From NCBI GenBank assembly GCA_018065885.1, contig JAGHSL010000041.1, positions 1-37,213 of the forward strand: a DNA stretch of 37,213 bases, written 5' to 3'. Position 1 is the first letter of the stretch. Each line of letters starts with the position of its first letter. Below are positions 5,092 through 24,649 of the stretch, one piece after another. The notes beneath the pieces are model-generated. The model did not search any database. It worked only from the letters and a program-made list of their open reading frames with translations, and had not been told where the DNA came from. The position numbers were made by a program, and so were the translations under genes. The stretch comes from Candidatus Limimorpha equi (GTDB lineage Bacteria > Bacteroidota > Bacteroidia > Bacteroidales > F082).

Positions 5092-5175
5092 AAGAATACA
5101 CAAAAAAACTTATAATGGTTGAAAACAAATCGCAAAAACAAATGGACATGAGATTCTTCGTATGTCCGGCTGTAA

Positions 5176-6120: not shown

Positions 6121-6179
6121 AAGGACTAAACAAAAACTTTAAATTGACTAAAAAAAGCAAGACGAACAGGCATAAAGAC

Positions 6180-6257
6180 TTGAGACAGCGAAGCCCCGCG
6201 AGAGGCGATTGCCAAGAATGCCGGAAGCATCACATTCTCGCGACCTCGCTGTCTCAA
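6180..6257 (-). terminator. Long GC-rich imperfect hairpin downstream of the DUF805 gene (terminator-like or REP-like)
   Basis: ttgagacagcga (6180-6191) pairs with tcgctgtctcaa (6246-6257). An inner stem pairs cgcgaga (6197-6203) with tctcgcg (6236-6242). On the minus strand a T-run (cttgcttttttt) follows only ~20 nt later, so it is not a textbook intrinsic terminator. Confidence 0.3.
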
Positions 6258-6273
6258 AGCCTGCGTTTGCAAA

Positions 6274-6588: not shown

Positions 6589-6714
6589 AATGATATTTTT
6601 TTAAGTGTTTAAGGGTTCCATAACTTCATTTTCCCAATCCAAAAGGTGGCATAGAACCCATGAATCCACCTATAGGACAAATTATATGTAAACTAAATAT
6701 GCTCATTTACTTAT

Positions 6715-7479: not shown

Positions 7480-7530
7480 GATAAATTTGTTTGTTATTGT
7501 TACTGTTTAATATTGGTTCTAGTTTAGTAA

Positions 7531-7787
7531 ATGACTGATTTTTCTATTATCACAATTAGATTCCCGCGTTGCGGGAAATCGAAGATTACCTCACTTCGTG
7601 TCGGTGAATTTACATTTCGACGTAGTCAATGGCCGCCCTATGTGTTATCAGTGCATACGGCGGCGGCTGAGGTCTACATTTAGGTTGAAAACAGGTTGCC
7701 ACCGTTGTTCTAACAATCTCAACTGTATGCCATTCCCGTCGGCAGACGGGAATCTGCGCAAATTCCATTCGCTATAAAATCAGTCAT
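7531..7787. other. Hairpin-rich ~257-nt intergenic element bounded by a 12-bp inverted repeat (candidate structured RNA, MITE-like or invertible element)
   Basis: atgactgatttt (7531-7542) is the reverse complement of aaaatcagtcat (7776-7787). Two related hairpins lie inside: ttcccgc-gtt-gcgggaa (7561-7577) and ttcccgtc-ggca-gacgggaa (7733-7752). Further hairpins are cgaag-attacctca-cttcg and ccgccctatg...catacggcgg. It sits in an unusually long 359-nt spacer between two paralogous lipoprotein genes. Confidence 0.3.
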
Positions 7788-7838
7788 CCGTTATACTACA
7801 GCCTTAATATTTTGCCAATTCCATGTTTTTTTCAACAT

Positions 7839-9404: not shown

Positions 9405-9433
9405 GATAAATTTGTGTTTGTTATTGTTTCTGT

Positions 9434-11203
9434 TTAACCTAATCCAAATTTTGGAGCAGTTTTTTTTGCTTCTTCGCCCACTAACGAATCAAATGTCCTC
9501 AAGTCAATAATTACTTGCAAATAATGCTTCAAACCATCTAAACGATCATTATTATCGTCATTGCCGATTTCGTTTTTGTATGCACTCTCATATTCATCTT
9601 TTTTAACACAACGTGCTTTTTTAATAATATCGTCAGCTTGTCGACTCAGTTTTGGATCATCTACTTCGTATTTCTCATAAAACAGCTTGCCACCGTCTTT
9701 CACATTCTCCCATGTCAGGCAAAGGAACAGCTTTGATTCCTGACTGACATTTATCTTTTTTTTCTTATTTTCCACAATCGGCTCGGCCACCTCTTCTGCA
9801 ACTGTTTCCTCAACGCTATCCATCATTATGCTCTCGTCATATTCAACTACATCTTCTTCAATTTCCTCAATTACATACTCATTATCATCACGGCTTGCCT
9901 CCATAACACTATCGGAGCCGCGTTTATACGAAATCAACATAACCACGGCCAACGATGTCCAGATCACTAAAGCAGTTATCGACCGTTTACCGGCAATCGG
10001 ATTTTCAGAAGCCACAGGTTCTTTCGGATTGGCTCCATATTCGTTGTCACCACGTTCACCATTTTTGAAAAGCATCACATACGGATAAAATGGTATCAAT
10101 TGGAACCATCCGGAACGTCCAATGTCGTGACACCGTTTCGCGCCTTGGACCAACAGGACCCAAGATGACAGAATCCAGAGAAGAACCCATGACAAGGAAA
10201 AAAATGATATGCAAGACTCAGGACATCCTTCTTCATCAATCAGATACGCAAGCTCACCTGCTGCCATCAACAACAGAAAAACATGTATCATGAAAAAGAC
10301 TACTGTAAGCCCATATTCCAATCTCCGTATCCTGCCTTTGGGTGAAAGCACATCATGAAACATTCTGGCTTTTTTCCCTTTAACTGGTGGAATTGGTGGA
10401 ATTGGCGGGCCATATACGCATGGATGATCAATTCGTGGATCAGGCATTATCCAATCCTTGGATTGTGGATTTACATCTACGGGCGGATTCACATTGTCGG
10501 TTCGCATCGGTTCCGGCTGCGGTTCTGCATCAGCCGGTTTGTCAGCAACACTGTCGGCAATGGGATTCCGACTCTTTTCCATCTCGGCATTCGGTTCAGC
10601 CTCGGCTACTTCGACCGAAGGAAGCTCCCTGTCGGCAGTCAGAAGCCCCTTTCCGCAAAACACGGTTCCGTATCGGGCAAAGCTGACGCTCCACATATTG
10701 CAAAGCATCTGCGAAAGGCCGCCTTGGTAAAAGGCGACTTCGCCATCAGCCGGAGCCGTGTAGCCCGAAACGGCTCCGCCTTCAGGCACAAGGCTCCCCT
10801 CCACATCCTGCGACAACGGACTGAGGAAACTCCAGTCGCACTCATTCTGAATCACGTTCTGACGGATGAATTTCGAGTGGTTCAGAATCATTTCCCTCGA
10901 AATCCGTCCAAGCACGGCCTCGTCATCTAACCGCTTGCCTCGCGGTATCAGGAAAGAAAACATGAGGTAGGCAGGTGCGTAGTTGGTGTCGAAAGCCCGC
11001 TCCACGCGGTGAAGCCACATCCCCGACGGCGCCGCACTCATGGCCCAGCCTGTGGCGGGCGTGCCGTCGCCATACTGATTCGAAAGGTAACGACGGATGT
11101 CGTGGAGGACCTTCACGTCGCCATCGGCCAGTGAACCTCCGTCAACGGCAACGTCCCGACGGTAGCCCGTGCCCAATATGCCATGTACAACAATTGAAAT
11201 CAT
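9434..11203 (-). CDS. Membrane protein: conserved cytoplasmic 'head' domain + DUF805 membrane domain + extra TM + acidic linker + one 'LTWENV' module
   Basis: The track start at 11209 is TTG; ATG at 11203 gives MISIVVHG.... The head and linker span nt ~11203-10400. The DUF805 blocks RIRRLEYG...AKRCHDIGRSGW...GDNEYGANP span nt ~10363-10019. TM is ITALVIWTSLAVVMLI. The C-terminal LFLCLTWENVKDGGKLFYEKYEV...DEYESAY...RLDGLKHYL spans nt ~9733-9515. Confidence 0.85.
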   Translation of the reverse strand: MISIVVHGILGTGYRRDVAVDGGSLADGDVKVLHDIRRYLSNQYGDGTPATGWAMSAAPSGMWLHRVERAFDTNYAPAYLMFSFLIPRGKRLDDEAVLGRISREMILNHSKFIRQNVIQNECDWSFLSPLSQDVEGSLVPEGGAVSGYTAPADGEVAFYQGGLSQMLCNMWSVSFARYGTVFCGKGLLTADRELPSVEVAEAEPNAEMEKSRNPIADSVADKPADAEPQPEPMRTDNVNPPVDVNPQSKDWIMPDPRIDHPCVYGPPIPPIPPVKGKKARMFHDVLSPKGRIRRLEYGLTVVFFMIHVFLLLMAAGELAYLIDEEGCPESCISFFSLSWVLLWILSSWVLLVQGAKRCHDIGRSGWFQLIPFYPYVMLFKNGERGDNEYGANPKEPVASENPIAGKRSITALVIWTSLAVVMLISYKRGSDSVMEASRDDNEYVIEEIEEDVVEYDESIMMDSVEETVAEEVAEPIVENKKKKINVSQESKLFLCLTWENVKDGGKLFYEKYEVDDPKLSRQADDIIKKARCVKKDEYESAYKNEIGNDDNNDRLDGLKHYLQVIIDLRTFDSLVGEEAKKTAPKFGLG

Positions 11204-11302
11204 AGTCAAAACACACTAATTCTTGTTAATTTCACTTATTTTGATAGCCAAAACATCATAAACCTATCACCTGACACCCAAAATAATTCACCATTCTTCC
11301 TT

Positions 11303-12097
11303 TCACTTCCGCCCAATAGGTAGTTTGGCCCATGCCTGTTTTGCAAGATAGGGAAAATCAGCGTCCAAATCAACGCCATATTCGTTCATCAGGTATCTCT
11401 TGAATTCCATCAGTTCTTTCAACGTACTGATTTCACTGCCTTTACCTTTGTCGAGTTCGTCCTTAATGTAGCCATGCACGGCCAGCAAACCGTCGATGTT
11501 CCATTTCGTGTCGCATCCGGTAATAAGCTTCAACCCGTTCTGATACCTTTTGTTTTTTTCGGCATCATACTCCTCCTTCAACGAAGACGCGCTTTCTGCC
11601 AACAGCAGCAAGTCGTCAATCTTCTTAGGATAGTTTGTGCCCAACAGCTTCTGGTGCAGCTTGAGTGTCGGAACGCTGGCACAAGGATGCCGGTCATCTC
11701 CGCGATACAGCTCGTCAAGCGAATGGCTATCGTAATATTTGCGAAGCTCGTCAATCCATGCCATTTCTTCCTTTATCGAATCGATGGCGGTGTTTGCATT
11801 TTCCATACTTTCCTTCGCCTTATCACATTGTTGCTTCACATCTTTCATCCTGGCATCAATTGCCTTGCCCTGAAACCATTTGTCGTTCATTCCGTTGTAA
11901 ATTTGACATAGCGAATCCACTTCGTTTATCAAATCGGCAACACGCTGATTGAGATCATTGATCTGAGTGGAATCGACGCTGCCTTTAGCCTTCCCAACGG
12001 CAGGCTTGGGATTCTTCCTAACGGTCTGGGCATTGGCCGTGAATGAAAGCAAAACTGCAAATAACAATACTATCTGTTTCATGGTTGTCGTTTTCAT
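11303..12097 (-). CDS. Secreted alpha-helical/coiled-coil protein of unknown function
   Basis: 264 aa with signal peptide MKQIVLLFAVLLSFTANAQ. It is helix-rich and charged. The C-terminal DADFPYLAKQAW resembles APDAYPYLYGVL of the upstream gene product. Its ATG overlaps the upstream stop (ATGA at 12094-12097). Confidence 0.6.
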   Translation of the reverse strand: MKTTTMKQIVLLFAVLLSFTANAQTVRKNPKPAVGKAKGSVDSTQINDLNQRVADLINEVDSLCQIYNGMNDKWFQGKAIDARMKDVKQQCDKAKESMENANTAIDSIKEEMAWIDELRKYYDSHSLDELYRGDDRHPCASVPTLKLHQKLLGTNYPKKIDDLLLLAESASSLKEEYDAEKNKRYQNGLKLITGCDTKWNIDGLLAVHGYIKDELDKGKGSEISTLKELMEFKRYLMNEYGVDLDADFPYLAKQAWAKLPIGRK

Positions 12098-12969
12098 AAC
12101 TTATCAATTAAATTCTTAATATCTTTGGTCGGGTCATCTATCTTGATTTTCATGGTTTCCATCAGCACGCCATACAAGTAAGGGTAAGCATCGGGAGCGA
12201 ACAATTCCTGATCGAGTTCCGTTTCTATTATTTCATAAAAATCTTCAAGATAATTTTTTATGATAATATCCGCATCTCCTTCTTCTACTTTCTTCATTTT
12301 GCAAACGAAATCCAATACAGTTTTCAGCTGTCCGGTCATGCGTCCGTAATCCTTGAGGCGTGTAGCTATTTCCGAGCACTTTGATTTTTCCGAGAGATGA
12401 ATATCATTGGCCTTTGCCATTGCATCCAGTTCGGCAGCAGCCGAGACGACACGTTCGCTTACGGAAGCGTAGGGTTTGCTCAACAGGGCTTCGGCCCTAT
12501 GGCAAGCCAGCAGATCGCTGACGGTTTTTTCCGATTCCTTATCGCCGAGATGTCCCTTGACCTGCAGCAGCATGACGGTGTCGTAATCAGCATACAGATT
12601 TTTGAACCAATCCTTATCGCCCTTATTGCTGCACAAGTCTTTTTTCAGCACGCCTTGGGCATACTTGAGCCGGGATTCAACGTCTTTACGGACGCTTGCC
12701 AGACTATCGGCTTCTTTGCGCAGCTTCTCAAGTTCAGCATTTCCCTTTTCAAATTCATCGATGGCTTTTTGCCAGCGGTTCATATCCGCCAACTGCTTCC
12801 CTGCCTTTTCAAGGTCTTTTTCCGACCATCCGCATGTGGCATCCGGCGCTGTTTTCACATCCGGTGCTTTTTTCCCTTTGGATTGTCCGTGTGCCCATGC
12901 CGGGACGGTCACGCACAGCATCATGATTGCCAACTTTGTGGCAAAACGGCATTTCATCATTCTTTTCAT
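12094..12969 (-). CDS. Secreted alpha-helical protein of unknown function (distant paralog of 11303..12097)
   Basis: 291 aa with signal peptide FATKLAIMMLCVTVPAWAHGQ and coiled-coil-like sequence. It overlaps the next gene by 4 bp, implying translational coupling. Confidence 0.6.
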   Translation of the reverse strand: MKRMMKCRFATKLAIMMLCVTVPAWAHGQSKGKKAPDVKTAPDATCGWSEKDLEKAGKQLADMNRWQKAIDEFEKGNAELEKLRKEADSLASVRKDVESRLKYAQGVLKKDLCSNKGDKDWFKNLYADYDTVMLLQVKGHLGDKESEKTVSDLLACHRAEALLSKPYASVSERVVSAAAELDAMAKANDIHLSEKSKCSEIATRLKDYGRMTGQLKTVLDFVCKMKKVEEGDADIIIKNYLEDFYEIIETELDQELFAPDAYPYLYGVLMETMKIKIDDPTKDIKNLIDKL

Positions 12970-13354: not shown

Positions 13355-14281
13355 TTACCGAGATGGCTTTGGGAACGCATCCAGCATTTCATTCCAACGC
13401 TTGACATTGCCGTTCACATCGCCCGAACTCACTCCATAGAGCGACTTAGCCATGTTCTGGTATAAGGCCATCTCACTGTCCTTATCGGCTATCTTGTTGA
13501 TTACAGAACGATACTGGCTATCGGTAGGAATGTCAGGAAGGGCAACCTTTCCTTTTTCCATCAAGGCATCCACGAAAGCCACATGGCCGCTGTGGAGCTT
13601 TTTCTGAACGGCTGCTTTCCGCGTGCTTTCGTAGAGCGTAGTGTTGCTGACTGGAGCGCTTGCCGTGGGCACATTGGCCAAGAGATTCTCCACCGTCTTG
13701 TAGTTCCATCTGTCGTCGATGGATGACGGAAGCTGCTTGCTTTGCCTATTCACATTCGAATTGTAATTTACAATTACACGGTATTCCTTGCAGATCCCGT
13801 CGATTTCCATCAGGTCGCTGTTGCTCTTTTCCCCTTTGAGGAAGTCCGCTGTCATGGCCTCGATGCTTTTAAAGTTATCCCAGTTCCAGCTTTTCTTTGC
13901 AAATTCGCTTCTTGCCATGGCGATGAAACGCACCAGGCAGCGGTTGCGGATGACCACGTTCACGCTCGTCATACATTCTGGTTCGACGTTCTGATTAGCG
14001 AAAAACTTACGCAGCTCTTCGGGAAGCGCCTGCAGCTTCTTGAAATCGCCGTCGCCGACGGCATTGACCTGCGCCTCAATGAGCTTTCCGGCCGAAGCCA
14101 CCGTCCCTTCGCATACTTCAGGAATTATGATTTCTTCTTGTTGCTGTTGTTCTGGTTCGTTTGTGGCAATCTTGTAGATTCCGAAACCCAAGGCGGCTGC
14201 TATGGCCACCACGATAATGATTTTAATTGTTTTCATTGGTTTGTGTTGTATTATGATTTTTATTTTATTGCAATTTTCCAT
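13355..14281 (-). CDS. Single-pass (N-terminal TM) protein of unknown function, last gene of the cluster
   Basis: 308 aa. ATG at 14281 overlaps the upstream gene by 17 nt. The alternative ATG at 14236 gives MKTIKIIIVVAIAAALGFGIYKIA (signal-anchor). I recognised no known motif. Confidence 0.6.
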   Translation of the reverse strand: MENCNKIKIIIQHKPMKTIKIIIVVAIAAALGFGIYKIATNEPEQQQQEEIIIPEVCEGTVASAGKLIEAQVNAVGDGDFKKLQALPEELRKFFANQNVEPECMTSVNVVIRNRCLVRFIAMARSEFAKKSWNWDNFKSIEAMTADFLKGEKSNSDLMEIDGICKEYRVIVNYNSNVNRQSKQLPSSIDDRWNYKTVENLLANVPTASAPVSNTTLYESTRKAAVQKKLHSGHVAFVDALMEKGKVALPDIPTDSQYRSVINKIADKDSEMALYQNMAKSLYGVSSGDVNGNVKRWNEMLDAFPKPSR

Positions 14282-17200
14282 CTAAAGCATTTACTAAGCA
14301 AGTCAAAATATCCCAATCATTTTTTTTATTAGCTTCTGAGGAAACATAACCATTGGCTCTTTGAAATGATTGTTCATATTGATCTTTGCCCATTTTTCTT
14401 GCTCTATCTTTGATATTTGAAATTTGCTTACTATACCTGTCGACGCTATTATTCAAAGAAAATTCCTCAAAATACTGATCTATAGTTAACTCTGCAGCAT
14501 TGTGATAATTAAGGCTGTTGAATATTTCATTTATTGTGTTTAGTGTTTTCTTCCCACCGCCATCACCATCTGATTTTTCAACAGATTCCTGGGCACCCAG
14601 GGAAGTACTTTCACCTTGAGTATCTTGGAGCCTTTTTTTCAGATCTTCCACCCAACCAGTCACTTTCTTAACCATCTTAGAATCAGGATATTCACTCTGA
14701 TAATTATTGAGGAAACCTTTACATTCTTCTAATGTCTTTGTATTTTCATAAAATTTTTTAAAAGCTTTCACCGCTCCAACATCTTCTGAATACCTTCCGC
14801 CATACTTGCCATCACCATACTTTTCAATAAAACCACGGGCAGAATCTGGCCCATCTACCATATTAAGCTCTTCCCATTCTTCCCTTTCCTCTTCGGCATT
14901 TGCTAATGATTTTTTTTCTTTTTCCCTTTCATTAATCCATTTGTTCACCTGCTTTCTATGTGCTTCAGACATCGGGGCTGTCAAATCACCAATTTTATCC
15001 TTAATCTCATCATAAGACTTCATATCTACATCATTCCATTTCTTTTCCAAGAAGCTAAGTCGGGCAAAATTCACGCTATCGCGATGCCTGAAGTCACATT
15101 GTTTTTGGTACAAGCTTTCAAAAGCGAGATACAATGAATCCTGTTGGGCTTCTTTTTGCTTTTCATTTTTTTCCAATCCTTCAATTATCTTCAGACATTC
15201 TGAATGACATTGTTCTGCACCTGCCATAAGTGTGAAATCGCCACAATAACATTCAAAGCCTTTCACCTGATCATTGAAATGTTCCATTCTTTCCTTTTGT
15301 TCTGCAAACACGTTGTTGTCGTCCTTCAGAGCCAAGGCCAAAGCCAATGCACCGCCAACCACAAGCAGAAGCGACACGACCAACAGGAACATGTATTTTG
15401 TCCGGAGCTTCCTGACAACCTTGTATGGCTGAGGTTTTTCGGTTTCTTGCCGCCAAACAACCTCTTCCTCATCTCCAAGTTCCAGCCTATACGAATAACG
15501 GTCTTTCTCAACTTTCGCAAACTTTGGTTCAACCGTAGGCATGTCTTGACACTCAATCACAAGCCTATGATTTTTTTTGTCATAGGAGATACCTTTATCT
15601 TTGATGATTTCATCAGGACCATTTCCAAAGACAGAAAATTTCTTCGATTTCTTATCCAGCAGCAGCACCCACTTCTTTATTGGCTTTTCTACCGGTTCTT
15701 CTTTTTTCCTAACATCTTTATCTTTGTAGGTGTTCTCTTTTCTCTTTGGCCGTCCCGGGTCTGAGGCCGTTAGCTGAACGGAAACGCCGGAGTTTGCCGA
15801 GTTGGACCCGTCGTGCGGGGAATTTCCTCCGGCTTTGACCGGAGGAAGCGAAACGGCTTCTTTCTTCTTAAAATACAGTTTCACATTCCCATTTGAATCA
15901 TCGCATTTGTCAAATTCCAGACCTTGATCAGCGTAACACCTTTTCAGTTCATCGATTTTTGCATCCAATTCGTTTTTCCGGACGGACATTTCAGAAATTT
16001 TCTGAAAATCAAGTATAATCTTTACCGTGATTAGCGGATACTTGGCCTTTATTGTCACGGTTCTGTTTGCGGCATCCTCCTGTGGCGGAGCCACTTCAAG
16101 TCCTGCGACATTCAAACTGCGTTTCAGCTTTTCGATTTCCGTGTATTTTCCGTTTTGCTTCACTGGGAATGTTCCTCCGTTTACGGGCGAAATCACGTTG
16201 ATGGTCCAAGTCGGGTTGAACGTAAGCTGAACATCAACTTTACCAACAGTGCCGTCGGCAATGGCGACAGACAGTTCATTATCATCGTAGCCGTTGCAGC
16301 TCACCTTGACGGTCCAGACCTCGTCACATTCCTCTCTCTCAAACTTGTAAAGTCCGTTTTCAGCAGTTCTTTTTTCCCAAGACGAGTCGTAGAACTTGCC
16401 TTTTTTCCATTCAACGGTAGTCTCTCCACTTAGAAACAGATTTCCAGTTGCTTTGTCAATGATTCGAAGCGAAACCGATGCGCTTTTGGGGACGAGAATG
16501 GGCAGCTCCACATTGATGGTTTCGCCATCCGAGCTTTGTGTGCCGGAAGGGATATAGACCTCGGCAGGCCTATAGCCACTTCTTTCGAGTCTGCCGCACC
16601 GGAAGTCTCCTGCACTTGTTTCCAGTTCTTTCTTTTTGACAGATGATTTCAAGCCATTAGTGAAGTATCCGTTCGGGTTGTTATATTCAATGGCATAATC
16701 GATGTCGTCGATATCCACATCGTTTGTCGTCAGCACTTTGTAGCCTTCTTCGCCATTGTCCGACACCATTTGCGGGTCGAGCAGGCTTTCGGTAAGAAAC
16801 ACCTGTTCGAAGTTGGCAAAGCCAGATTTTAGGAAATGGGGATATTGGAAATAATCGTCCACGCGGTTTTCGGCCCCTTGCATCAAGGCCGTGCGCGATG
16901 CGTCGCCAACTCGAGGGTGCTGTTTCCAATGCTTGCTTTCCACCAGTTTGTTCAGTTCGTCGGATTTGTCTTTCACAAACGACCAATCGACATCCACATT
17001 AGCCATTCCCCCCACGATGTGCATCTTGTATTTCAAGACAATATCGTCCAAAGCCTTCTTGATTTCGGTGCCAGCCAGTTTTTCTCCCTTAGGCAGGAAA
17101 AGGCTGGCCATCATGAAACCGTCGCGGCCAAAACCATCGAAAAGAAGAATCAGCTTATGGAACAGGACACCTGTAGCCAAAGGCTGAAAGCTATAGCCTT

Positions 17201-17342
17201 CCTTGTTGAGCCTATCAGCGTCGCGGGTGAGAAAACGGCGGCGGTCCAATAAAGATTTCGAAATCTCGTCATCAAGGATACCATCCGTGGCATATCTGGG
17301 ATAGAAGCCGTCGGACGTACCGCTAATTATTATCTTAATCAT
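14265..17342 (-). CDS. 1025-aa single-pass membrane protein: 'head' domain (distant homolog of the 3382 and 9434 heads) + beta-rich middle + TM + helical extracytoplasmic C-terminus
   Basis: ATG at 17342. The head MIKIIISGTSDG...GFMMASLFLPKGEKLAGTEIKKALDDIVL...VDVDWSFV aligns with MISIVVHGILGT...AYLMFSFLIPRGRQLNGEAVLGRISREMIL...YECDWSFL. A CarboxypepD_reg-like stretch follows (VSLRIIDKATGNLF...WTVKVSCNGYDDNELSVAIADG). The only TM is YMFLLVVSLLLVVGGALALALAL (nt ~15395-15327). Confidence 0.8.
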   Translation of the reverse strand: MIKIIISGTSDGFYPRYATDGILDDEISKSLLDRRRFLTRDADRLNKEGYSFQPLATGVLFHKLILLFDGFGRDGFMMASLFLPKGEKLAGTEIKKALDDIVLKYKMHIVGGMANVDVDWSFVKDKSDELNKLVESKHWKQHPRVGDASRTALMQGAENRVDDYFQYPHFLKSGFANFEQVFLTESLLDPQMVSDNGEEGYKVLTTNDVDIDDIDYAIEYNNPNGYFTNGLKSSVKKKELETSAGDFRCGRLERSGYRPAEVYIPSGTQSSDGETINVELPILVPKSASVSLRIIDKATGNLFLSGETTVEWKKGKFYDSSWEKRTAENGLYKFEREECDEVWTVKVSCNGYDDNELSVAIADGTVGKVDVQLTFNPTWTINVISPVNGGTFPVKQNGKYTEIEKLKRSLNVAGLEVAPPQEDAANRTVTIKAKYPLITVKIILDFQKISEMSVRKNELDAKIDELKRCYADQGLEFDKCDDSNGNVKLYFKKKEAVSLPPVKAGGNSPHDGSNSANSGVSVQLTASDPGRPKRKENTYKDKDVRKKEEPVEKPIKKWVLLLDKKSKKFSVFGNGPDEIIKDKGISYDKKNHRLVIECQDMPTVEPKFAKVEKDRYSYRLELGDEEEVVWRQETEKPQPYKVVRKLRTKYMFLLVVSLLLVVGGALALALALKDDNNVFAEQKERMEHFNDQVKGFECYCGDFTLMAGAEQCHSECLKIIEGLEKNEKQKEAQQDSLYLAFESLYQKQCDFRHRDSVNFARLSFLEKKWNDVDMKSYDEIKDKIGDLTAPMSEAHRKQVNKWINEREKEKKSLANAEEEREEWEELNMVDGPDSARGFIEKYGDGKYGGRYSEDVGAVKAFKKFYENTKTLEECKGFLNNYQSEYPDSKMVKKVTGWVEDLKKRLQDTQGESTSLGAQESVEKSDGDGGGKKTLNTINEIFNSLNYHNAAELTIDQYFEEFSLNNSVDRYSKQISNIKDRARKMGKDQYEQSFQRANGYVSSEANKKNDWDILTCLVNALDGKLQ

Positions 17343-17369
17343 GTTGTTTCCCTAATTTAAATAACTGTT

Positions 17370-17377
17370 CAAAAATA
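17370..17377 (-). promoter_or_regulatory. Candidate Bacteroidetes -7 promoter box (TATTTTTG) upstream of the 1025-aa gene
   Basis: The plus strand reads caaaaata, which is minus-strand TATTTTTG and matches the TAnnTTTG consensus. It lies ~28 nt upstream of the ATG at 17342, inside a 161-nt spacer. This is a motif match only. Confidence 0.3.
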
Positions 17378-17503
17378 AAACGAAAATCAAAAACGGGCGA
17401 AGCCTTCGGTGTTCCGAGGGCATGGGATTACCACTACCACAATGTCGTGCAATCCCACAGCCTCCTCCTGTTTCCTTGCTTCACGAGTGCATCTGCTTAA
17501 AAA

Positions 17504-19165
17504 CTATCTCCTAAACACGTTTCTTGTTCTTCTTCTCCAACTGTCCGTTTCCGCAACCTTCGAGTATTCAATCAGCTGCTTCACCAAAACAGAAGCTGGT
17601 TCAGGATCGAACAGGCACAGGCTTTGGAAGAACACCTCGCCGATTGAAAGAGGAACCACATCTATTGTGCCATTAGTAAGACCTAATCCACCATTTCCGG
17701 GGTTACCAAGGATTTTTTTCAACTGGGTCACTAAAGAGCCGAAATATTCATCTGCCGCCTCCATCGCGCTATCCTTCCATCGGTTTCTATCAGGCGACAG
17801 CTGATCACATTTCGTAACTATCAGGCTTATGCCTTGCGTGGTACTGTTGAACAAATGATGAGTTTTAAAATATGTGGCGGCATTCTGTAGGATGAGCACC
17901 TGGTCAGCGTTATGCAACGGCCTGCTGTCGAGAATGAAATAGTGGTATTTGGGATTATCCGTATTTTCAAGATATTTTTTCAGTTGCTCATAAGTCGCCT
18001 TATGCGCTCCAGTCTTAAATGTCCTGCCCTCAACTTCGCAACTGAAGCATTCAAATATCTCGCCGGAAATCTCAACGACTGCGAGCTTGTGTTCCTTGAT
18101 GCTTTCATGTCCTCTTCTGTCTCTGACTGTTTCATTCAAGGTCAATGGAAGATACTGTGTGGTATCCACATCCGAAGCGGTAGGAAAACAAACGGCGGGC
18201 TTGTTAGGATCGCCAAGAAACATGGTAGAGAGTTGGTTCATATAACCTAAACCTTCACCCTCGCGAGGTTCAAAGCAATTTCCTTTTCGCGCCATGCTAA
18301 GGATGGCAGCCATGGCGCAAGTCTTGCCCGAACCCGGCACGCCCCAAAAATAAACCTCCGTGTTTCCCTCGGGAATACTCGTGGGAGTTTTGCCCATCCT
18401 GAGAGACACCGGATTTTTATCCCAGCTTTTCAACACCTCGTTTCTGATTTGGCCCTTACTGTCCTTGACCTTATCCCTTAGGTCATTGGCCGTGATGCCG
18501 CAAACTTTGAGGTAACCCAATGGGTAGGCGTTGCTGTCTTCTTCCAAATCGCGAATGATGTTCTCTTTCTGTTCCTTCATTATTTCAATTACCTTTGCTG
18601 TTGCTTCGGCCACATGCATTCCATGAGGATAGGATTCCTTGTAGAACTCGTATGAGGCCGAGGTGTTGTTGCTGCATGCCGACTGCCAGGCTTCTTCATC
18701 CTTTCTCTGCTCTTCCTGTCGTGCTCTGACTTCATCCGTATGCTTACCGTTAGGGAAATTGGTGACATAGGCATCGTATGTGCCGTTGGCTTCTGCCACA
18801 GCCCAAACCTTGTCGTCAACTTCGGCGGCATGGACGCCATTAGGATAAGCGTGTAAGTATCCGATATAACCCGTCATGTTGTTTACCTTCAAGGCATCGT
18901 TCCACTTTTCCTGTTCTTCCCTATTTCGGGTCTCGGCAATCTTGGCATTGGCATCCGCAACATGTCTGCCGTTAGGGTAAATGTCCATATAGCGTTGGAA
19001 ATCGTTTCTGCTATTGCACAAGTCCCATGCCGCATCATCGACCATGGATGCCCTGCCCATGAAAACCGGCACCGACATCAGCTGGGTTAAGGTCACTTCT
19101 CTGTTAATGAGTGCTTCTGCGATTTCGCTTGCATCGCTACACTGGATTCGTAATTCATCCCACAT
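17504..19165 (-). CDS. P-loop GTPase-like protein with four N-terminal 'YPxGxH' helical repeats
   Basis: 553 aa. The repeats are YMDIYPNGRHVADANAKI, YLHAYPNGVHAAEVDDKV, YVTNFPNGKHTDEVRARQ and YKESYPHGMHVAEATAKV (nt ~19003-18581). G1/Walker A is GVPGSGKT (18343-18320). The G3-like motif is VVEISGEIFE. The G4-like motif is IVTKCDQL (TKCD at 17815-17804). Confidence 0.8.
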   Translation of the reverse strand: MWDELRIQCSDASEIAEALINREVTLTQLMSVPVFMGRASMVDDAAWDLCNSRNDFQRYMDIYPNGRHVADANAKIAETRNREEQEKWNDALKVNNMTGYIGYLHAYPNGVHAAEVDDKVWAVAEANGTYDAYVTNFPNGKHTDEVRARQEEQRKDEEAWQSACSNNTSASYEFYKESYPHGMHVAEATAKVIEIMKEQKENIIRDLEEDSNAYPLGYLKVCGITANDLRDKVKDSKGQIRNEVLKSWDKNPVSLRMGKTPTSIPEGNTEVYFWGVPGSGKTCAMAAILSMARKGNCFEPREGEGLGYMNQLSTMFLGDPNKPAVCFPTASDVDTTQYLPLTLNETVRDRRGHESIKEHKLAVVEISGEIFECFSCEVEGRTFKTGAHKATYEQLKKYLENTDNPKYHYFILDSRPLHNADQVLILQNAATYFKTHHLFNSTTQGISLIVTKCDQLSPDRNRWKDSAMEAADEYFGSLVTQLKKILGNPGNGGLGLTNGTIDVVPLSIGEVFFQSLCLFDPEPASVLVKQLIEYSKVAETDSWRRRTRNVFRR

Positions 19166-19263
19166 AATGATATTATTTTTAGTTTGTTATTTACTTGTAA
19201 TTATTCAATTTAATATTTCCCAATGAAAAGGTTTCGAGGCTTGCGGTCTCGCGTTCCTGCCGC

Positions 19264-20244
19264 CTAAAGCCGTCCTATGCCGTTTTCTTCCTCATCATCG
19301 TCTTCATCCTTGAGCAGTTCCTTGAACAAGCCTTTGCTGCGGCTGTCGCGTTCGGCCGTAAGATAGGGAAGCAGGAAGAGCAGGATGCCCACCAAGCCGC
19401 ATATCACCGTCCAGATGCTGCTGATGAAGCCATCCGGCTCGGTGAAGCATTTCATAACTTCGGATGCGGTGGTAAAGGAATAGCTCCAATATTCGGGAAC
19501 AGTTATGCCAAGATCAGTATACGCTTCACCATATTCACGAAGAATGGTCATGTCGGTCGTGTCATTCTTGGCCCTTTCAGCCAAAACGTTGTATTTGGCC
19601 TGAAGAGCGCCGGAAATTTCATCGACATTGTTCATAACGGATGGCAGCTGCCACCAGCTCAGCTTTTCCCTGTTCATCACATCTGGCACAGAATCATTGA
19701 GGATAGACAGGTTTCCTTCCAGGTTAGTCACCATAAATTCAACTTTCGTCATATCTGCCAAATCGGTACTTTCAAACAATCGCTCGCAAAATTGCTCATT
19801 TCCGACCTTGTTATTTACGACTTCTTCCAGTAAACTTCTCCAATTCTCAACCCTTCTATTGACATAATCGTTGTAACTGGCGGTCATTGAATCCAATTGT
19901 TGGCGCTGGTCGGCAACAATGTCCTCAATTTGTTTGGTGCGGCCATTCACCGTAAAGAAATGGTTGATGAGGCCCATGCCACCCACGAAAACGACGAGCA
20001 TGATGCCCAACATAACCGTTTCGGTGACAGCCGACTTTTTGAAATAGAAAGGCTTGCTGCACAGCTTGGCCTTTTCAAGCTGCATGCACACCACAATAGG
20101 AACCACCAAAAGGCATACAGCCACTATGATGCTCCATAAAAGTTTTCCACCATTCAGGTAGTAGAAACTCATAAAACCCATGGCTGCCAAAACCAACGCA
20201 GCCCCAACGGACAAAATCCATCCAAGATTAAACTTGCTTTTCAT
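19264..20244 (-). CDS. 4-TM membrane protein with a ~170-aa soluble loop and an acidic C-terminal tail
   Basis: 326 aa. There are three N-terminal hydrophobic helices (ILSVGAALVLAAMGFMSF, LLWSIIVAVCLLVVPIVVCM, VMLGIMLVVFVGGMGLI). One helix lies near the C-terminus (IWTVICGLVGILLFLLPYL), followed by DEDDDEEE. I recognised no family. Confidence 0.65.
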   Translation of the reverse strand: MKSKFNLGWILSVGAALVLAAMGFMSFYYLNGGKLLWSIIVAVCLLVVPIVVCMQLEKAKLCSKPFYFKKSAVTETVMLGIMLVVFVGGMGLINHFFTVNGRTKQIEDIVADQRQQLDSMTASYNDYVNRRVENWRSLLEEVVNNKVGNEQFCERLFESTDLADMTKVEFMVTNLEGNLSILNDSVPDVMNREKLSWWQLPSVMNNVDEISGALQAKYNVLAERAKNDTTDMTILREYGEAYTDLGITVPEYWSYSFTTASEVMKCFTEPDGFISSIWTVICGLVGILLFLLPYLTAERDSRSKGLFKELLKDEDDDEEENGIGRL

Positions 20245-20317
20245 AATGATAAGATTTAATTGCTATTTGTTGTTTGTTTCTATTCGTATAGATATCATTT
20301 TTTCCGAAATCTATCAG

Positions 20318-21241
20318 TCACTTACATTTTTTATTTCTTGCCACAAAGACGGCGAAGCAGAACTCACGGCAGAAAAAGTCGTAATCCACCCAAATGCTGC
20401 CTTCGTCGCCCCAGTCGGTTCCCCACGAGTTGCGCACTCGGAAAGCATGGCGCCCGTCGTCGTAACCCACCAAGGTCATGGCATGAAAGGCATGCATTCC
20501 CGAATAATTATAGGTGTCATAATCGATCACCTTGTCAGTTTTCCATCTCATGAAGCGGTCGCCAAGATGCGCTCCAAAAGCCAAGGGTATGGTGTCGTTG
20601 AGATAGGCTTTCAATTCGCCTACTGTGGGCAAGTCTCCATCACGAGCCACGACAAAGAAGTCCGTTATCCGGTTCGTAGTGTCGCCAAATCCAGTCCCAT
20701 CGCATCCTTTCAGCTCTTCGTATGGAACTTTTTCCATAGAAGCCACTCCGTTGGTCATCAAGACATTGAATGCAGCCTCGAAACCAGTTCCCGAACATCC
20801 TTCACCCTTTTGCCCTTGTGGGATTGACAGCCACAGGTCTTTGGGCGAAGTCTGGTTGGAGGCTTGTTCCAGCATTTCCCCTGTCCAATGCCCATCGATG
20901 GCATTGAGAGCCGTCTTCAGGTTGTAGCCTGTCGCCCACGCCACGCAAGTGCCCTTGTTGCCTTGGTCACCAATAGGCGGGAAATACTGCTCAAGCAGCA
21001 CTTGCTTGGGAAGATTCAACGTGTCGTCATCTTGATAGGGTGGCACCACGTTTGGCATGTTGTCCCAGTCGTCATAATCGGGCAGGAAACCTGTCCGCTC
21101 AACAATATGTGCCTTATAGTTGCATTCGGCGCAAGTCTTCACGAGACATGCTATCAGCATCAGAATCAGCAGCAAGCCCACCACTCTCAGAATGATGGAA
21201 AAGGGTCTTGAATTACCCACATATTCTTTTTCTCTTTTCAT
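20318..21241 (-). CDS. Signal-anchored papain-like (C1 family) cysteine peptidase
   Basis: The track start at 21247 is TTG; the first ATG is 21241. TM is FSIILRVVGLLLILMLIACLV. The catalytic-type blocks are GDQGNKGTCVAWATGYN (Cys), HAMTLVGYDD (His) and VRNSWGTDWGDEGSIWV (Asn/Trp). Confidence 0.8.
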   Translation of the reverse strand: MKREKEYVGNSRPFSIILRVVGLLLILMLIACLVKTCAECNYKAHIVERTGFLPDYDDWDNMPNVVPPYQDDDTLNLPKQVLLEQYFPPIGDQGNKGTCVAWATGYNLKTALNAIDGHWTGEMLEQASNQTSPKDLWLSIPQGQKGEGCSGTGFEAAFNVLMTNGVASMEKVPYEELKGCDGTGFGDTTNRITDFFVVARDGDLPTVGELKAYLNDTIPLAFGAHLGDRFMRWKTDKVIDYDTYNYSGMHAFHAMTLVGYDDGRHAFRVRNSWGTDWGDEGSIWVDYDFFCREFCFAVFVARNKKCK

Positions 21242-21247
21242 AGTCAA

Positions 21248-23020
21248 TCAATCGTTTGGACAATGCACCATAAAACTCCAGGCGGTCCCTGAATCGCCAT
21301 CAGGAATTACTTCTATATAAATCTTCGGTTTATGGAACTGGATTGTTTTCGTGATTTCATACTCGTCCGTAAGTCCGAAAAACCTAAAGATTTCCTCACC
21401 TTTGTTATCTTCACCATCATAGATGACGATAAGGTCAGGGTAGTAATTACCCGTAAAGTAATCGAACTCGAAAGAGCCGGAATTCTGCCCCATATCGACA
21501 ATAAAGCTCTCTGGGGTATTGCTTCCCGATTTCTGTACCTCATCGCAAGGTCTTAACACAGGAGGCGGAATCACTTTATCGTCCGGATTAACATTATCGT
21601 CCGGAATAACATTGTTGGTTGGAATAATAGGACGGACAACTGGATCGGTGCAGCCACACCCGCAGAAGTCGTAATGCCCATGACCCAGCAAAATCAGCCA
21701 TAACAGCAGGAAAAGCAGCAGCAAGCCCAAGGCAAGCAGCAGCCAATTGAGCAAGGCATGCCACAGTCCGCCGCGCCCTGATTTCACAGGTTCTTTCCTT
21801 TCAGGCTTTTGGGCGGTAAAGTCTCTGTCTTCGACAATACTTTCGGCCATAGGGTCGGCATTCCATTCACTGCAGGTCTCGCCGTCAACCACAGGCAAGG
21901 GCGGCACCTGACCGGGAGTCAGCCTTGTTCCATGCTCAACCAGAAACTGCGTGATGACTTTTCCATCGGGAAGGAGAAACCTCACCGTATGCTTCTGCGT
22001 GTCGGGCGGTGCTGGCGCAATGGCCTTATAGTCGCGGTTGTCATTGACCACATCGTTCATCGGGTCGCCATCCCAAGTCGTACAGACAACTCCATCAACA
22101 ACTGGAAGTTGAGGAATATAGTCGCTGCCAATCCGTTTGCCATGCTCAGCATCGAATTCGATGATAACCTGCCCGTCAGGTGTAAGGAAACGGATGTGAT
22201 GAGTGATTGGCGGTTCTTCCTTCGGATCTTCTTTCAGTTCTTCCTTCGGATCTTCCTTCGATTTTTCTTTCGGCTCTTCTTTCGGCTTAGGCTGTTCTTT
22301 GTATTGGGCCGTAAAACTAAGGTCAGATTTCACCTCAACACCTATGGGATTCCTATCCCAGCCCAAGAAATCACAGCCATCATTGGCTCGAACCAACGGC
22401 ACCTGATGGGGCTCAATCCTTGAGCCATGACTTTTCTTCAGCTCTGTGGGATTGTCAGTAGTGCCACGGACACCAAGTTCGAACCTGACAATATGTAATT
22501 CCTTTTCAGGGAATAAGTCCGCAAAGATAATCGACTCTTCAAAATCGAAGCCATCTCTGGGCCGCATACCCCAAACCGTGGCTACCACACGATTGTCTCC
22601 ACAATAGACATTACTCTCCGAATCACCGGCATACTTAAGCGAAAGCTGAAGGAAGTTAGCTTCTTCGGCCAATCCTTCGTTCTTCAGCCGGTCAAGCACC
22701 GAATGATAATGGGCGAGCGTCTTGTCGAGCAACGACTTGTAAAAGTCATGGTCGGCGCCAGCCTTGCTCAAGCGCACAAATTCGGCATCGGAACGCGGCG
22801 TGAACCAATAGAAATACTCTTCCGATTTCTGCTTGTCAACATCATAATACGGCAGGGCAAGAAAATCACGATAAGGTTCATCGACAAACTGGTCGATGAT
22901 GCCTTTCACACTGTCGTAACGTTTCCACATGGGCCACTGTCCTATCCCCTGCTCATCGCATACCTGCGACCGTAAGGTGACACATAACGGTTTGTAGCCT
23001 TTAACTGCTGGTATTGGCAT
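21248..23020 (-). CDS. SrfA-like N-domain + 3 InlB-type B repeats + TM + Cys-rich/beta-rich C-terminal domain (paralog of 23033..24643)
   Basis: 590 aa with no signal peptide. The N-domain contains WPMWKRY, YWFTPRSD, LSLKYAGDSESNVYCGDNRVVATVWGMR. The repeats start HIVRFEL, HHIRFLT and HTVRFLL, with (F/V)xGWD or W(D/N)xxP. The low-complexity KEQPKPKEEPKEKSKEDPKEELKEDPKEEPP spans nt 22300-22208. TM is LWHALLNWLLLALGLLLLFLLLWLILL (21766-21683). A 144-aa tail follows. Confidence 0.75.
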   Translation of the reverse strand: MPIPAVKGYKPLCVTLRSQVCDEQGIGQWPMWKRYDSVKGIIDQFVDEPYRDFLALPYYDVDKQKSEEYFYWFTPRSDAEFVRLSKAGADHDFYKSLLDKTLAHYHSVLDRLKNEGLAEEANFLQLSLKYAGDSESNVYCGDNRVVATVWGMRPRDGFDFEESIIFADLFPEKELHIVRFELGVRGTTDNPTELKKSHGSRIEPHQVPLVRANDGCDFLGWDRNPIGVEVKSDLSFTAQYKEQPKPKEEPKEKSKEDPKEELKEDPKEEPPITHHIRFLTPDGQVIIEFDAEHGKRIGSDYIPQLPVVDGVVCTTWDGDPMNDVVNDNRDYKAIAPAPPDTQKHTVRFLLPDGKVITQFLVEHGTRLTPGQVPPLPVVDGETCSEWNADPMAESIVEDRDFTAQKPERKEPVKSGRGGLWHALLNWLLLALGLLLLFLLLWLILLGHGHYDFCGCGCTDPVVRPIIPTNNVIPDDNVNPDDKVIPPPVLRPCDEVQKSGSNTPESFIVDMGQNSGSFEFDYFTGNYYPDLIVIYDGEDNKGEEIFRFFGLTDEYEITKTIQFHKPKIYIEVIPDGDSGTAWSFMVHCPND

Positions 23021-23032
23021 TGTATGTCTGTT

Positions 23033-24643
23033 TTATTTAGAACACGGATTACAAAGATAAATGATATAAAGTACAACAAAAACGAACAATATGAACAACG
23101 CGATGCGTAACATCCAGCGCCAAAAGCCGTTACCCATGCCACTGCCTCCTCCAAAGATCTTCGGCATGATGCCGTGGCGGCGACTCTGTAACTTAATGTC
23201 GGTATCTTTATTAATAATCAGTTTCAGCGGATTAGGTACCCAAAAATGGCTTTGCTTGCCATTCGCGACAGGCAACGGCGGCACCTGTTCGCTTTTCAGG
23301 CAATTGCCATGCAACACCTGCGTCCGCATCACCTCTTTGCCATCGAGGCCGATGAAACGCACTCTATGCCACACCTGGTCTTCGTCCTTTCCCGCGTCTT
23401 CCTGTTGCGGTGGCTTTGCCATGAAATCACGGTCAGCATTAATAAGTTCACCTACGGGATTGACATCCCATGCGGGGCTTAACACTCCATTCAGCACTGG
23501 CAGGGGCGGCACCTGTGCAGCCGACAAGCGCGAGCCATGTTCCACCTTCAACTGCGAACAAACCTGTCCGTCGGGCAAAAGGAAACGGACCGTGTGCTGT
23601 GGCTTCTCCGGCATCTTCGGCTTAAGAGCCTTATAGTCATGGTCTGCAACGATAACGTCATTCAATGGGTTTCCATTCCATGCCGGGCACACCATCTTTC
23701 CAACAGAAGGCAACTGGGGAACAAGTCCCGGAAGTATCCGTTTGCCATGCTCCACATCCAATTCCTTGACAATAAGGTTTTCGGGCGAAAGGAAACGCAC
23801 ATGATGCTTCTTGGGTTTAGGGTTGTCGCCATGTTCTTCTTCTACCTGATTTCTTGTTATCGGCTTCTCATCCACTGGATTATTCGGCGATTCTGGAACA
23901 GGAGGGACTTCCTGCTTAGCCTGCTCCTTGTACTCGGCTTTAAACAGCAAATCGCCTTTCACTTCAACCCCTATAGGATTGCGGTCCCAGCCCGTGAAGA
24001 CGTATCCGTTCTTGGCTTTCACCAAAGGCACTTGAGACTGATGTATCTTTGATCCATGGCCTTTCTTTAGTGAAACGGATTCGCTTGCTGTGCCTAAGTC
24101 ACCTAATTCAAATCGCACAGTATGATACTCCACTTCGGGTATCAGCTCAACAGATAACATCGATGCGCCCATCTCATGTCCCGGACGCTGACGCATACCC
24201 CACACTGTAGCCACCACATGGTCATCGCCACAATAGATGTTGTCTTCCGAATCGCCGGCATACTTGAGCGACAGCGACAGAAAATTGGCATCTTCTGCCT
24301 TACCTTCGCTTTGCAGTTTGGCCACTACCGACCGATAGTGTTTCAGTGTATCAGCAAGGATGCCTTTGTAAAAGTCATGGTCATCACCAGCCTGGCTCAA
24401 GCGGACGTATGCAGTATCGCATCGGGGAGTGTACCAATAGAAAAGTTCCTCCGCCTTCATCTTGTCAATCTCATGATAAGGCATGGCAAGGAAACTACGG
24501 TATGGCTTGTCAATATATTGGTCAACAATGCCTTTAACGCTTTCGAAGCGTTTCCACATTGGCCATTGGCCAACACCCTGCTCATCGCAAACTTTCGAAC
24601 GTGGGGTGACACATAGCGGCATATAGCCTTTAACTGCTGGCAT
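23033..24643 (-). CDS. SrfA-like N-domain + 4 InlB-type B repeats + C-terminal tail anchor
   Basis: 536 aa. The N-terminal ~165 aa are collinear with the 21248..23020 product (MPAVKGYMPLCVTPRSKVCDEQGVGQWPMWKRF...VVATVWGMR). The repeats start HTVRFEL (with GYVFTGWDRNP), HHVRFLS, HTVRFLL and HRVRFIG. The only TM is at the extreme C-terminus (FWRWMLRIALFILFVFVVLYIIYL). Confidence 0.75.
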   Translation of the reverse strand: MPAVKGYMPLCVTPRSKVCDEQGVGQWPMWKRFESVKGIVDQYIDKPYRSFLAMPYHEIDKMKAEELFYWYTPRCDTAYVRLSQAGDDHDFYKGILADTLKHYRSVVAKLQSEGKAEDANFLSLSLKYAGDSEDNIYCGDDHVVATVWGMRQRPGHEMGASMLSVELIPEVEYHTVRFELGDLGTASESVSLKKGHGSKIHQSQVPLVKAKNGYVFTGWDRNPIGVEVKGDLLFKAEYKEQAKQEVPPVPESPNNPVDEKPITRNQVEEEHGDNPKPKKHHVRFLSPENLIVKELDVEHGKRILPGLVPQLPSVGKMVCPAWNGNPLNDVIVADHDYKALKPKMPEKPQHTVRFLLPDGQVCSQLKVEHGSRLSAAQVPPLPVLNGVLSPAWDVNPVGELINADRDFMAKPPQQEDAGKDEDQVWHRVRFIGLDGKEVMRTQVLHGNCLKSEQVPPLPVANGKQSHFWVPNPLKLIINKDTDIKLQSRRHGIMPKIFGGGSGMGNGFWRWMLRIALFILFVFVVLYIIYLCNPCSK

Positions 24644-24649
24644 AATTCA

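Follow-up and report, generated by a model that had tools for sequence, protein, structure and literature searches.

A conserved gene pair of a probable GTPase and a head-domain membrane protein beside srf genes in Bacteroidota

Longin domains are classic platforms for GTPases, and prokaryotes have been stated to have none (Levine et al. 2013, PMC3747258). They consist of a five-stranded beta-meander with one helix against one face and two against the other. Their order of strands (b) and helices (a), bb-a-bbb-aa, is told apart from the a-bb-a-bbb-a of roadblock domains (PMC3747258). [quoted passage not shown] DO-GTPases, known from conflict systems, are defined by their Walker B glutamate (Kaur, Burroughs, Iyer & Aravind 2020, PMC7159879). 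SrfA of the SrfABC system consists of an N-domain (SrfA-N), a disordered linker, a transmembrane helix and a periplasmic domain; SrfA-N is modelled as a platform for SrfB and then SrfC, and SrfA is proposed to be exported in vesicles (10.64898/2026.09.18.752743). SrfABC of Xenorhabdus has been reported as cytotoxic (PMC6950479). Here we describe a locus that shares features with each of these systems. It lies on a contig of Candidatus Limimorpha equi (JAGHSL010000041.1, assembly GCA_018065885.1; the whole analysed stretch of 37,213 nucleotides (nt) is called the window) and centres on two genes. One encodes a 553-amino-acid (aa) P-loop protein that is probably a GTPase, and the other a 1025-aa single-pass inner-membrane protein, here called the giant, whose N-terminal domain we call the head. 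They form the core of a conserved block of four genes, the other two of which encode a four-transmembrane (4-TM) protein and an N-terminally anchored 308-aa protein (p308). Where Bacteroidota have this block, it is normally an addition to srfB, srfC and a srfA-like gene. No description of this Bacteroidota module was found in the literature on SrfB, SrfC, PF07520 or PF10139.

The sizes, order and coordinates that a preliminary description of the window gave for the two genes and the 161-nt spacer between them proved exact (Table 1), and the pair is found far beyond this organism. A scan with one genome per species found a relative of the GTPase in 168 genomes. Going by record titles, the best 80 of these are almost all Bacteroidota (Bacteroidales, Flavobacteriales, Cytophagales, Chitinophagales and Sphingobacteriales), and carriers range from Prevotella, Segatella and Bacteroidales of gut and rumen to free-living flavobacteria. 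A few metagenome-assembled genomes are labelled otherwise (Limnohabitans, Lachnospiraceae, Bacilli, Clostridiales and Candidatus Fibrimonas) and are taken to be mis-binned or mis-assigned. Open reading frames (ORFs) were called in all loci and searched with hidden Markov models (HMMs). Among the 74 loci with sequence downstream of the GTPase, the next gene encodes a head protein in 52 (E<1e-4). In the other 22 it is usually 514-685 aa long; 19 of these genes, once aligned, match the head profile (hhalign probability 98.5%, E 2e-15, 190 columns), and the last three loci hold fragments or duplicates with weak, in-register head matches. A head gene thus directly follows the GTPase in at least 71 of 74 loci (52 by HMM and 19 by hhalign), which is the co-occurrence that the preliminary description had named as a test of its proposal. 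The distance from GTPase stop to head start has a median of 6 nt, is at most 20 nt in 55 of the 71 loci, and is an overlap in nine. Partners whose translation is coupled typically have such spacing. Lookups in the other direction, from two head proteins, both landed beside the GTPase.

The recurrent gene order is SrfB, SrfC, SrfA-like protein, 4-TM protein, GTPase, head protein, p308. The 4-TM protein was detected directly upstream of the GTPase in 62 of the 74 loci, p308 is present in 52 of 62, and SrfC is adjacent in 57 of the 63 loci with enough upstream sequence. Outside the window the SrfA-like protein is about 850-1000 aa long, with an S8 peptidase at least in Gelidibacter and Runella. 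Five loci (L036, L037, L054, L056 and L064) carry the 4-TM, GTPase, head and p308 genes without adjoining SrfB or SrfC, and the block therefore behaves as a separable sub-module. In a further locus (L071), a GTPase and an ORF of 191 aa that partly matches the head were all that was found. On one contig, four head proteins, of 1109 aa, 383 and 635 aa (DUF805), and 576 aa (FGE-sulfatase), lie behind one GTPase. At the far end of the four-head cluster of L089, a second, shorter gene of the GTPase family (335 aa) lies at 18334-19341; some loci may therefore hold two paralogous GTPases, as DO-GTPase systems do.

The head defines a protein family of its own. The first ~200 aa of the giant had been described as homologous to the N-termini of two downstream proteins in the window (3382-5091 and 9434-11203), here called satellite head proteins, and both BLASTP and profile comparison agree; against the 3382 protein, the giant's first ~135 aa give E=7e-11 with 24% identity over 134 aa. 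The ATG starts chosen earlier for the satellites (5091 and 11203) fit the family N-terminus MISIVVHG better than the TTG starts of the ORF list. The two satellite heads share 86% protein identity over 267 aa, after which the proteins diverge completely, and their DNA is ~88% identical (window 4282-4581 against 10394-10693). With heads so nearly identical and C-termini that are unrelated (FGE-sulfatase versus DUF805), the satellites point to a recent duplication in which the outer domain was swapped.

Word-indexed homologue searches with either head returned only one or two relatives. A head profile of six sequences, searched exhaustively with HMMER (E<=1e-3), yielded 144 representative clusters, of which 53 score below 1e-30. 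In nearly all of them the match begins at residue 1-14, with later starts only in fragments and weak partial matches; P0184 and P0224 are repetitive outliers with an internal match. Head proteins are either giants of about 860-1330 aa or small proteins of about 380-720 aa. A simple hydropathy scan found exactly one transmembrane segment, always after the head, in 116 of 141 members. In a set of 53 members, mostly small ones (380-962 aa), the domain at the C-terminus is DUF805 in 11, Sel1 repeats in five and FGE-sulfatase in two; the rest have no known domain. Pfam and NCBIfam searches with the window head proteins and the family consensus gave no model for the head, even at E<=10 in Pfam, PADLOC returned nothing for the giant or the head consensus, and PDB sequence and profile searches with the giant and the head found no match. 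These data support the head as a distinct cytoplasmic N-terminal module on membrane proteins with variable outer parts, which are helical/TPR-like, FGE-sulfatase, DUF805 or Sel1.

The giant was modelled with AlphaFold2 (AF2) from a 64-sequence input, with a mean predicted local distance difference test score (pLDDT) of 79.8 and values above 90 over most of aa 1-310. The hydropathy profile has a single transmembrane segment (aa 652-670), which six K/R residues directly precede and an acidic stretch follows; the AF2 model has a helix at 648-671, followed by an all-helical part at 675-1020. The topology proposed before, with ~650 aa inside, one transmembrane helix and ~350 helical aa outside, is thereby upheld. 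Between the head and the linker, the mid-region has Foldseek matches to pilin/TIE, the transthyretin-like domain of carboxypeptidase D, and ISG15/di-ubiquitin.

In the same model, the head core (aa 1-131) is predicted to contain E3-8, E14-18, H26-29 (short and irregular), E48-54, E58-68, E74-84, H91-106 and H121-131 (E, strand; H, helix), which is the longin order bb-a-bbb-aa. An extension of E147-154, H158-164 and E178-182 continues up to about aa 205. With the full 1025-aa model, the Foldseek matches of the head were TagF structures (9t0n, E 1.1e-3, probability 1.0; 6iz8, 7.7e-3; 2qnu, 2e-2). The same three entries stood on top for a first, head-only model from six sequences (pLDDT 59.6), which the 64-sequence model supersedes. 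That low-confidence model also matched the longins Lst4 (9e-3), Sec22b (1.6e-2), FLCN (2.2e-2), SMCR8 (3.8e-2) and a Lokiarchaeal longin (0.12), as well as Nprl2/3 and TRAPP subunits. Its TagF and longin matches have E-values of 4e-3 to 0.1 and probabilities of 0.85-0.99, with a longin query TM-score (TMq) of ~0.4. At the sequence level, the head has no match to the longin/SNARE-like families of Pfam (E<=10). A longin/TagF-like fold, in the sense of fold resemblance only, is consistent with these comparisons but statistically modest. No confident housekeeping fold emerged, and the head, which the preliminary description placed in no named family, has TagF and eukaryotic longin domains as its nearest predicted structural neighbours.

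Longin, PAS and GAF domains have a similar beta-meander sandwich, and LOV/PAS structures do occur among the head-only matches. The head might then be a PAS/GAF-like cytoplasmic sensor of small molecules, with the giant as receptor and the GTPase as an independent downstream enzyme. We regard this as very improbable: the PAS/LOV matches rank lower, with probabilities of 0.1-0.5 and a TM-score of about 0.25 against the 0.85-0.99 of TagF and longins, the order with two C-terminal helices is that of a longin, and no Pfam PAS or GAF match was found for the head.

The TagF match raises another alternative, since TagF, the best structural match of the head (probability 0.97-1.0 over its entries), is bacterial and a non-GTPase regulator. 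The head could be a generic TagF-like scaffold that tethers the 4-TM protein, p308, SrfB/SrfC or the proteases into one machine, with the GTPase acting elsewhere and no direct pair. Co-conservation of the whole block of four to seven genes, beyond the pair, speaks for such a scaffold. It does not explain why the head gene is specifically the one next to the GTPase, at a median gap of 6 nt, or why additional satellite heads come without further copies of the other genes, and no T6SS families or genes occur among 19 scanned ORFs of the window. The head also differs from TagF in having no sequence relationship to it and no Pfam or NCBIfam match, and in its membrane anchor and GTPase neighbour, as TagF is a soluble protein for which no GTPase partner is known. 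We hold the scaffold to be unlikely.

The partner of the giant belongs to a family of 199 homologous clusters, all unannotated and none with a Pfam domain in this region. The family alignment has an N-terminal helix, 0-5 YPxGxH TPR/BamD-like units, with weak matches to BamD/CpoB, and a C-terminal P-loop domain. In the latter, FWGxPGSGKT, TQYLP, hhE-x-SGE, HFFhhD, hhhTK-x-D and FSLGE are nearly invariant (h, hydrophobic); residues G275, G280, T282, E365, S367, G368, E369, T451, K452 and D454 of the window protein are invariant or at least 90% conserved. The motifs G1 (GxxxxGK[ST]), Walker B/G3 and [NT]KxD therefore occur in GTPase order throughout the family. TKxD is the guanine-specificity motif of GTPases. 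The Walker B glutamate (E365 in hhELSGE) is nearly invariant. The best Pfam match is DO-GTPase2, below threshold, with 16.7 bits for the consensus against a cut-off of 27 (E 0.0062) and weak matches in six of 38 family members; neither DO-GTPase1 nor DO-GTPase2 reached the gathering score. Pfam, NCBIfam and PADLOC otherwise gave nothing beyond weak Walker-A-type matches, and PDB sequence and profile searches found no relative. A Ras-like GTPase was rejected, as the hhalign comparison with H-Ras was not significant, and so was a paralog of the G-domain in the N-terminal region of SrfC (hhalign E 0.048, probability 1.1%, not significant). Judged by its motifs, the 553-aa protein is a probable GTPase, possibly distantly DO-like. 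One homologue (P0044, 691 aa) ends in RCC1 repeats (PF13540, PF25390), a curious fusion because in eukaryotes the exchange factor of Ran is an RCC1 propeller.

A GTPase gene followed by the gene of a longin-like membrane protein makes the pair look like a new bacterial membrane-to-GTPase switch. Our preferred reading, held at slightly better than even confidence, is that the head serves as the membrane docking or regulatory platform of this GTPase. The head would dock the soluble GTPase at the membrane and bias or read its nucleotide state, through a surface that facilitates guanine-nucleotide exchange factors (GEFs) or GTPase-activating proteins (GAPs) or binds effectors, as in longin/roadblock domains. 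Periplasmic outer domains would sense events and supply the input to a GTPase switch at the membrane, the N-terminal TPR-like repeats of the GTPase would recruit further partners, and output would run through SrfB, SrfC and SrfA-like proteins and the peptidases. The head might act as a homodimer, or the giant as a heterodimer with satellite heads, because dimers are the typical form of longin/roadblock platforms (PMC3747258) and a locus can have as many as four heads. A more specific version, in which receptor heads of longin topology dimerise as a GEF/GAP platform for a non-Ras, DO-like GTPase and gate an envelope defence or toxin machine of SrfB/SrfC, is tentative and rather doubtful. In all of this we infer GTP specificity, physical binding, the direction of signalling and the output.

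Several points weigh against the platform reading. The Foldseek E-values of the head are marginal (1e-3 to 5e-2), PAS/LOV structures appear among its matches, and no sequence-level link of the head to a longin, TagF or any PDB chain was found. GTPase class and GTP specificity are deduced from motifs, and the GTPase is not Ras-like by comparison with H-Ras. The GTPases served by the known longin/roadblock platforms are Ras-like, Rag or SR-beta. Binding of the head to the GTPase is deduced from gene linkage, and the adjacency would fit equally well a head that binds the 4-TM protein, p308 or the Srf proteins. In the window itself, an atypical 161-nt spacer with a terminator-like hairpin separates the pair.

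Compared with the described longin/roadblock platforms (MglB-MglA, Ragulator-Rag, SRX-SRbeta, DENN, Mon1-Ccz1, FLCN-FNIP and GATOR1), the head has the predicted longin order and is genetically paired with a GTPase-like protein, and several paralogous heads per locus would allow dimers. It differs in having no sequence similarity to them and a partner outside the Ras superfamily, and in being bacterial, of longin rather than roadblock topology, and fused to transmembrane and periplasmic domains. A GTPase with a longin/roadblock platform is a known kind of system; new would be a bacterial domain of longin topology on transmembrane receptors, a non-Ras GTPase and an extended Srf system.

SrfB (PF07520) and SrfC (PF10139) are present in the window, and SrfB has a weak FtsA/actin-fold match (E 0.0086) below threshold. 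For comparison with Proteobacteria we used four plasmid Srf loci, from Rahnella, Ewingella, Methylobacterium and Gluconobacter. The SrfA-N of annotated SrfA in Rahnella and Ewingella, together with the N-domain encoded by the genes upstream of srfB in Methylobacterium and Gluconobacter, is homologous to the N-domain of the 536- and 590-aa paralogs of the window and their orthologues (hhalign probability 96.5%, E 7.8e-10). The paralogs have the motif ...VVATVWGM... where Rahnella SrfA has ...PVLTFWGF.... As the two paralogs carry the SrfA-N homologue, the Bacteroidota cluster is SrfB-SrfC-SrfA in permuted order, B-C-A in the window. Identity of the head with SrfA-N was rejected (hhalign probability 0.1%). 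Head proteins nevertheless copy the layout of SrfA, with a cytoplasmic N-domain, a disordered linker, a transmembrane helix and a periplasmic domain, and the four proteobacterial plasmid loci examined lack the genes for the 4-TM protein, GTPase, head and p308. By analogy, the cluster may hold two sets of adaptor and NTPase, in which SrfA-N would go with SrfB/SrfC and the head with the new GTPase.

These results divide the idea, put forward in the preliminary description, that the head couples membrane sensors both to the GTPase and to the Srf NTPases. Coupling to the GTPase is favoured by genetic context and the longin-like predicted fold, and none of the outcomes named in advance as refuting it was seen: co-occurrence is strong, head homology is significant and no housekeeping fold was assigned with confidence. 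Coupling to the Srf NTPases is unsupported because SrfA-N, the proposed platform of SrfB and SrfC, has its homologue in the 536- and 590-aa paralogs; the block also stands apart from SrfB/C in five loci.

The presence of SrfB/SrfC beside the block in 57 of 63 loci also allows the cluster to be viewed as a Bacteroidota "SrfABC toxin", in which the heads are membrane-anchored scaffolds for cargo or export, for example in vesicles, and the GTPase drives assembly or export. The reported cytotoxicity in Xenorhabdus (PMC6950479) and the bitopic SrfA with its proposed vesicle export, of the same architecture as the head proteins (10.64898/2026.09.18.752743), fit this view. We think it improbable, given that the head is unrelated to SrfA-N, that the block also occurs without adjoining SrfB/C, that the toxin role of Srf is itself poorly established, and that carriers include free-living flavobacteria and rumen commensals.

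Likeness to DO-GTPase/GAP1 conflict systems (PMC7159879) extends to a TRAFAC-like GTPase with a Walker B glutamate, whose weak best Pfam match is DO-GTPase2, to a constant adaptor fused or linked to variable modules with frequent transmembrane components, and to association with an HSP70-fold ATPase, peptidases, FGE-sulfatase and Sel1/TPR domains. Unlike those systems, the GTPase falls below the Pfam threshold, the adaptor is the head, a different domain, and the window has one GTPase gene and not a paralogous pair, a truncated second copy being seen only in L089. GAP1-N/M/C and GASH families of Pfam are absent among the window neighbours, and the Srf genes go unmentioned in the main text of PMC7159879. 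A kinship of the head with the GTPase-associated adaptor domains described for NTPase-centred conflict systems, considered early on, received no Pfam match. On plasmid pSP2_1 of Runella sp. SP2 (L085), the module (13653-29547) lies directly downstream of a complete BREX type 1 system (1-12382) with brxC, a pglX-like methylase, pglZ and brxL; this one plasmid hints at a defence-island context. The likeness to NTPase-centred conflict systems, which lies in the glutamate-Walker-B GTPase, the HSP70-fold partner, the peptidases, the FGE-sulfatase and Sel1 modules and this one BREX neighbour, is suggestive only.

The C-terminal part of the giant had been said to echo the YPxGxH repeats of the GTPase. 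Both quoted strings stand in the giant, and an HMM built from 190 repeat units of the GTPase family matches other giants (P0134, 2e-11; P0140, 8.5e-9; also P0166 and P0179); it does not match the window giant (E>10). The units lie C-terminal of the transmembrane helix in P0140, P0166 and P0179, and no transmembrane segment was found in P0134. In a rough full-length alignment, P0134 and P0166 have YPxG/FPxG units opposite the two strings, and the echo in the window is therefore a common TPR-like unit in degenerate form. Lying in the periplasmic part, across the membrane from the cytoplasmic GTPase, it cannot reflect a contact between the two; a sign of direct contact was rejected for this reason and for want of an HMM match. 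A string "...YPNG...MRDSMTVYGPP..." is common to the N-terminal region of a GTPase homologue (P0034) and the post-head linker of a small head protein (P0002), and the window satellites keep "CVYGPPIP" in their cytoplasmic linker. This sequence sharing suggests exchange of modules between the GTPase and head families.

The spacer between the pair contains, as noted before, a TATTTTTG box (17370-17377, minus strand), which carries no statistical distinction: the TANNTTTG motif occurs 33 times in the window where 26.7 are expected, and no TTTG stands at the expected -33 spacing. The box was rejected as a promoter signal and is given no weight because of this lack of enrichment and of a TTTG at the canonical distance. 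The spacer also holds a GC-rich hairpin followed by a U-rich tract, with a fold no better than that of shuffled sequence (z-score -1.04, not significant). Its length is an outlier against the median of 6 nt in the 71 other loci, and it may be an internal terminator or promoter specific to this lineage.

The minus strand carries nearly all genes of the window (Table 1), and the p308 ORF overlaps the stop of the giant by 17 nt. An Rfam search of the window gave no match. An ~85-aa "LTWENV" module is present in three copies in a 314-aa protein (5176-6120, minus strand) with an N-terminal hydrophobic, lipoprotein-like segment, in one copy at the C-terminus of the DUF805 head protein (9434-9800, minus strand), and, by BLAST, at the end of the orthologous giant in L001 (11639-14251). 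It is an extracytoplasmic module common to several cluster proteins. Two paralogous lipoprotein-like genes without family match (6715-7479 and 7839-9404, minus strand) have identical signal peptides (MRKKIYIML...), and the longer repeats a ~135-aa unit (direct DNA repeats ~400 nt apart). Upstream of srfB, genes for trypsin-like peptidases stand on both sides of the ECF sigma/anti-sigma pair (30777-34249, minus strand), and on the Methylobacterium plasmid (L087, 516-2294) such a peptidase also precedes the srfA-like gene. Trypsin-like peptidases may be a recurrent accessory of Srf loci.

Table 1. Genes and subfeatures of the window, in order of transcription (AF2, AlphaFold2; TM, transmembrane)
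Feature	Position	Strand	Remarks
Trypsin-like peptidase	33164-34249	-	
ECF-type sigma factor	32560-33159	-	Weak matches
Anti-sigma-like protein	31889-32563	-	
Second trypsin-like peptidase	30777-31883	-	
SrfB (PF07520)	27574-30768	-	Pfam E 3e-166
SrfC/Virul_Fac (PF10139)	24650-27541	-	Pfam E 5e-89
536-aa SrfA-N-type paralog	23033-24643	-	TM helix aa 512-530, in C-terminal part
590-aa SrfA-N-type paralog	21248-23020	-	TM helix aa 427-445, in C-terminal part
Papain-like peptidase	20318-21247	-	
326-aa four-TM protein	19264-20244	-	Conserved gene just upstream of GTPase; TM by hydropathy
553-aa P-loop protein, probable GTPase	17504-19165	-	
Four YPxGxH TPR/BamD-like units, GTPase aa 54-196	18578-19006	-	Unit HMM E 5e-11 to 5e-8
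P-loop GTPase-like domain, GTPase aa ~265-553	17504-18373	-	GVPGSGKT, TQYLP, VVEISGE, HYFILD, IVTKCD, LSIGE
GTPase-giant spacer, 161 nt	17343-17503	-	
1025-aa single-pass inner-membrane giant head protein	14265-17342	-	
Head domain, giant aa 1-205	16728-17342	-	AF2 pLDDT about 83-98
Predicted beta-sandwich (aa ~215-385) and two ubiquitin-like alpha/beta units (aa 390-493), cytoplasmic	15864-16700	-	AF2
Disordered K/E/P-rich linker, giant aa 494-582	15597-15863	-	pLDDT <50
TM helix, giant aa 648-671, N-terminus inside	15330-15401	-	AF2, hydropathy and flanking charges
Extracytoplasmic all-helical region, giant aa 672-1025	14268-15329	-	Degenerate TPR-like hairpins (FIEKYGDGKY..., FLNNYQSEYPDSK...)
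308-aa N-terminally anchored protein, p308	13355-14281	-	Conserved gene downstream of giant
Several proteins without family match	downstream of p308	-	
Satellite head protein (DUF805)	9434-11203	-	Head, P-rich linker, multi-TM DUF805, C-terminal LTWENV module
Satellite head protein (FGE-sulfatase)	3382-5091	-	Head, linker, TM, FGE-sulfatase domain

The head domain and the GTPase are two protein families without a Pfam or NCBIfam model. SrfABC also comes in a form of seven genes that include a probable second pair of NTPase and adaptor, which gives new handles on the poorly understood biology of Srf. If the head does regulate the GTPase, the pair would show in bacteria, fused to transmembrane sensors, the kind of longin-GTPase partnership by which eukaryotes organise their membrane traffic. 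It would then be the first GTPase platform of longin topology described in bacteria, as an independent or an ancestral counterpart of the eukaryotic partnership, and the origin and minimal mechanism of such platforms would be testable in cultivable Flavobacterium, Niastella, Gelidibacter and Xylanibacter ruminicola.

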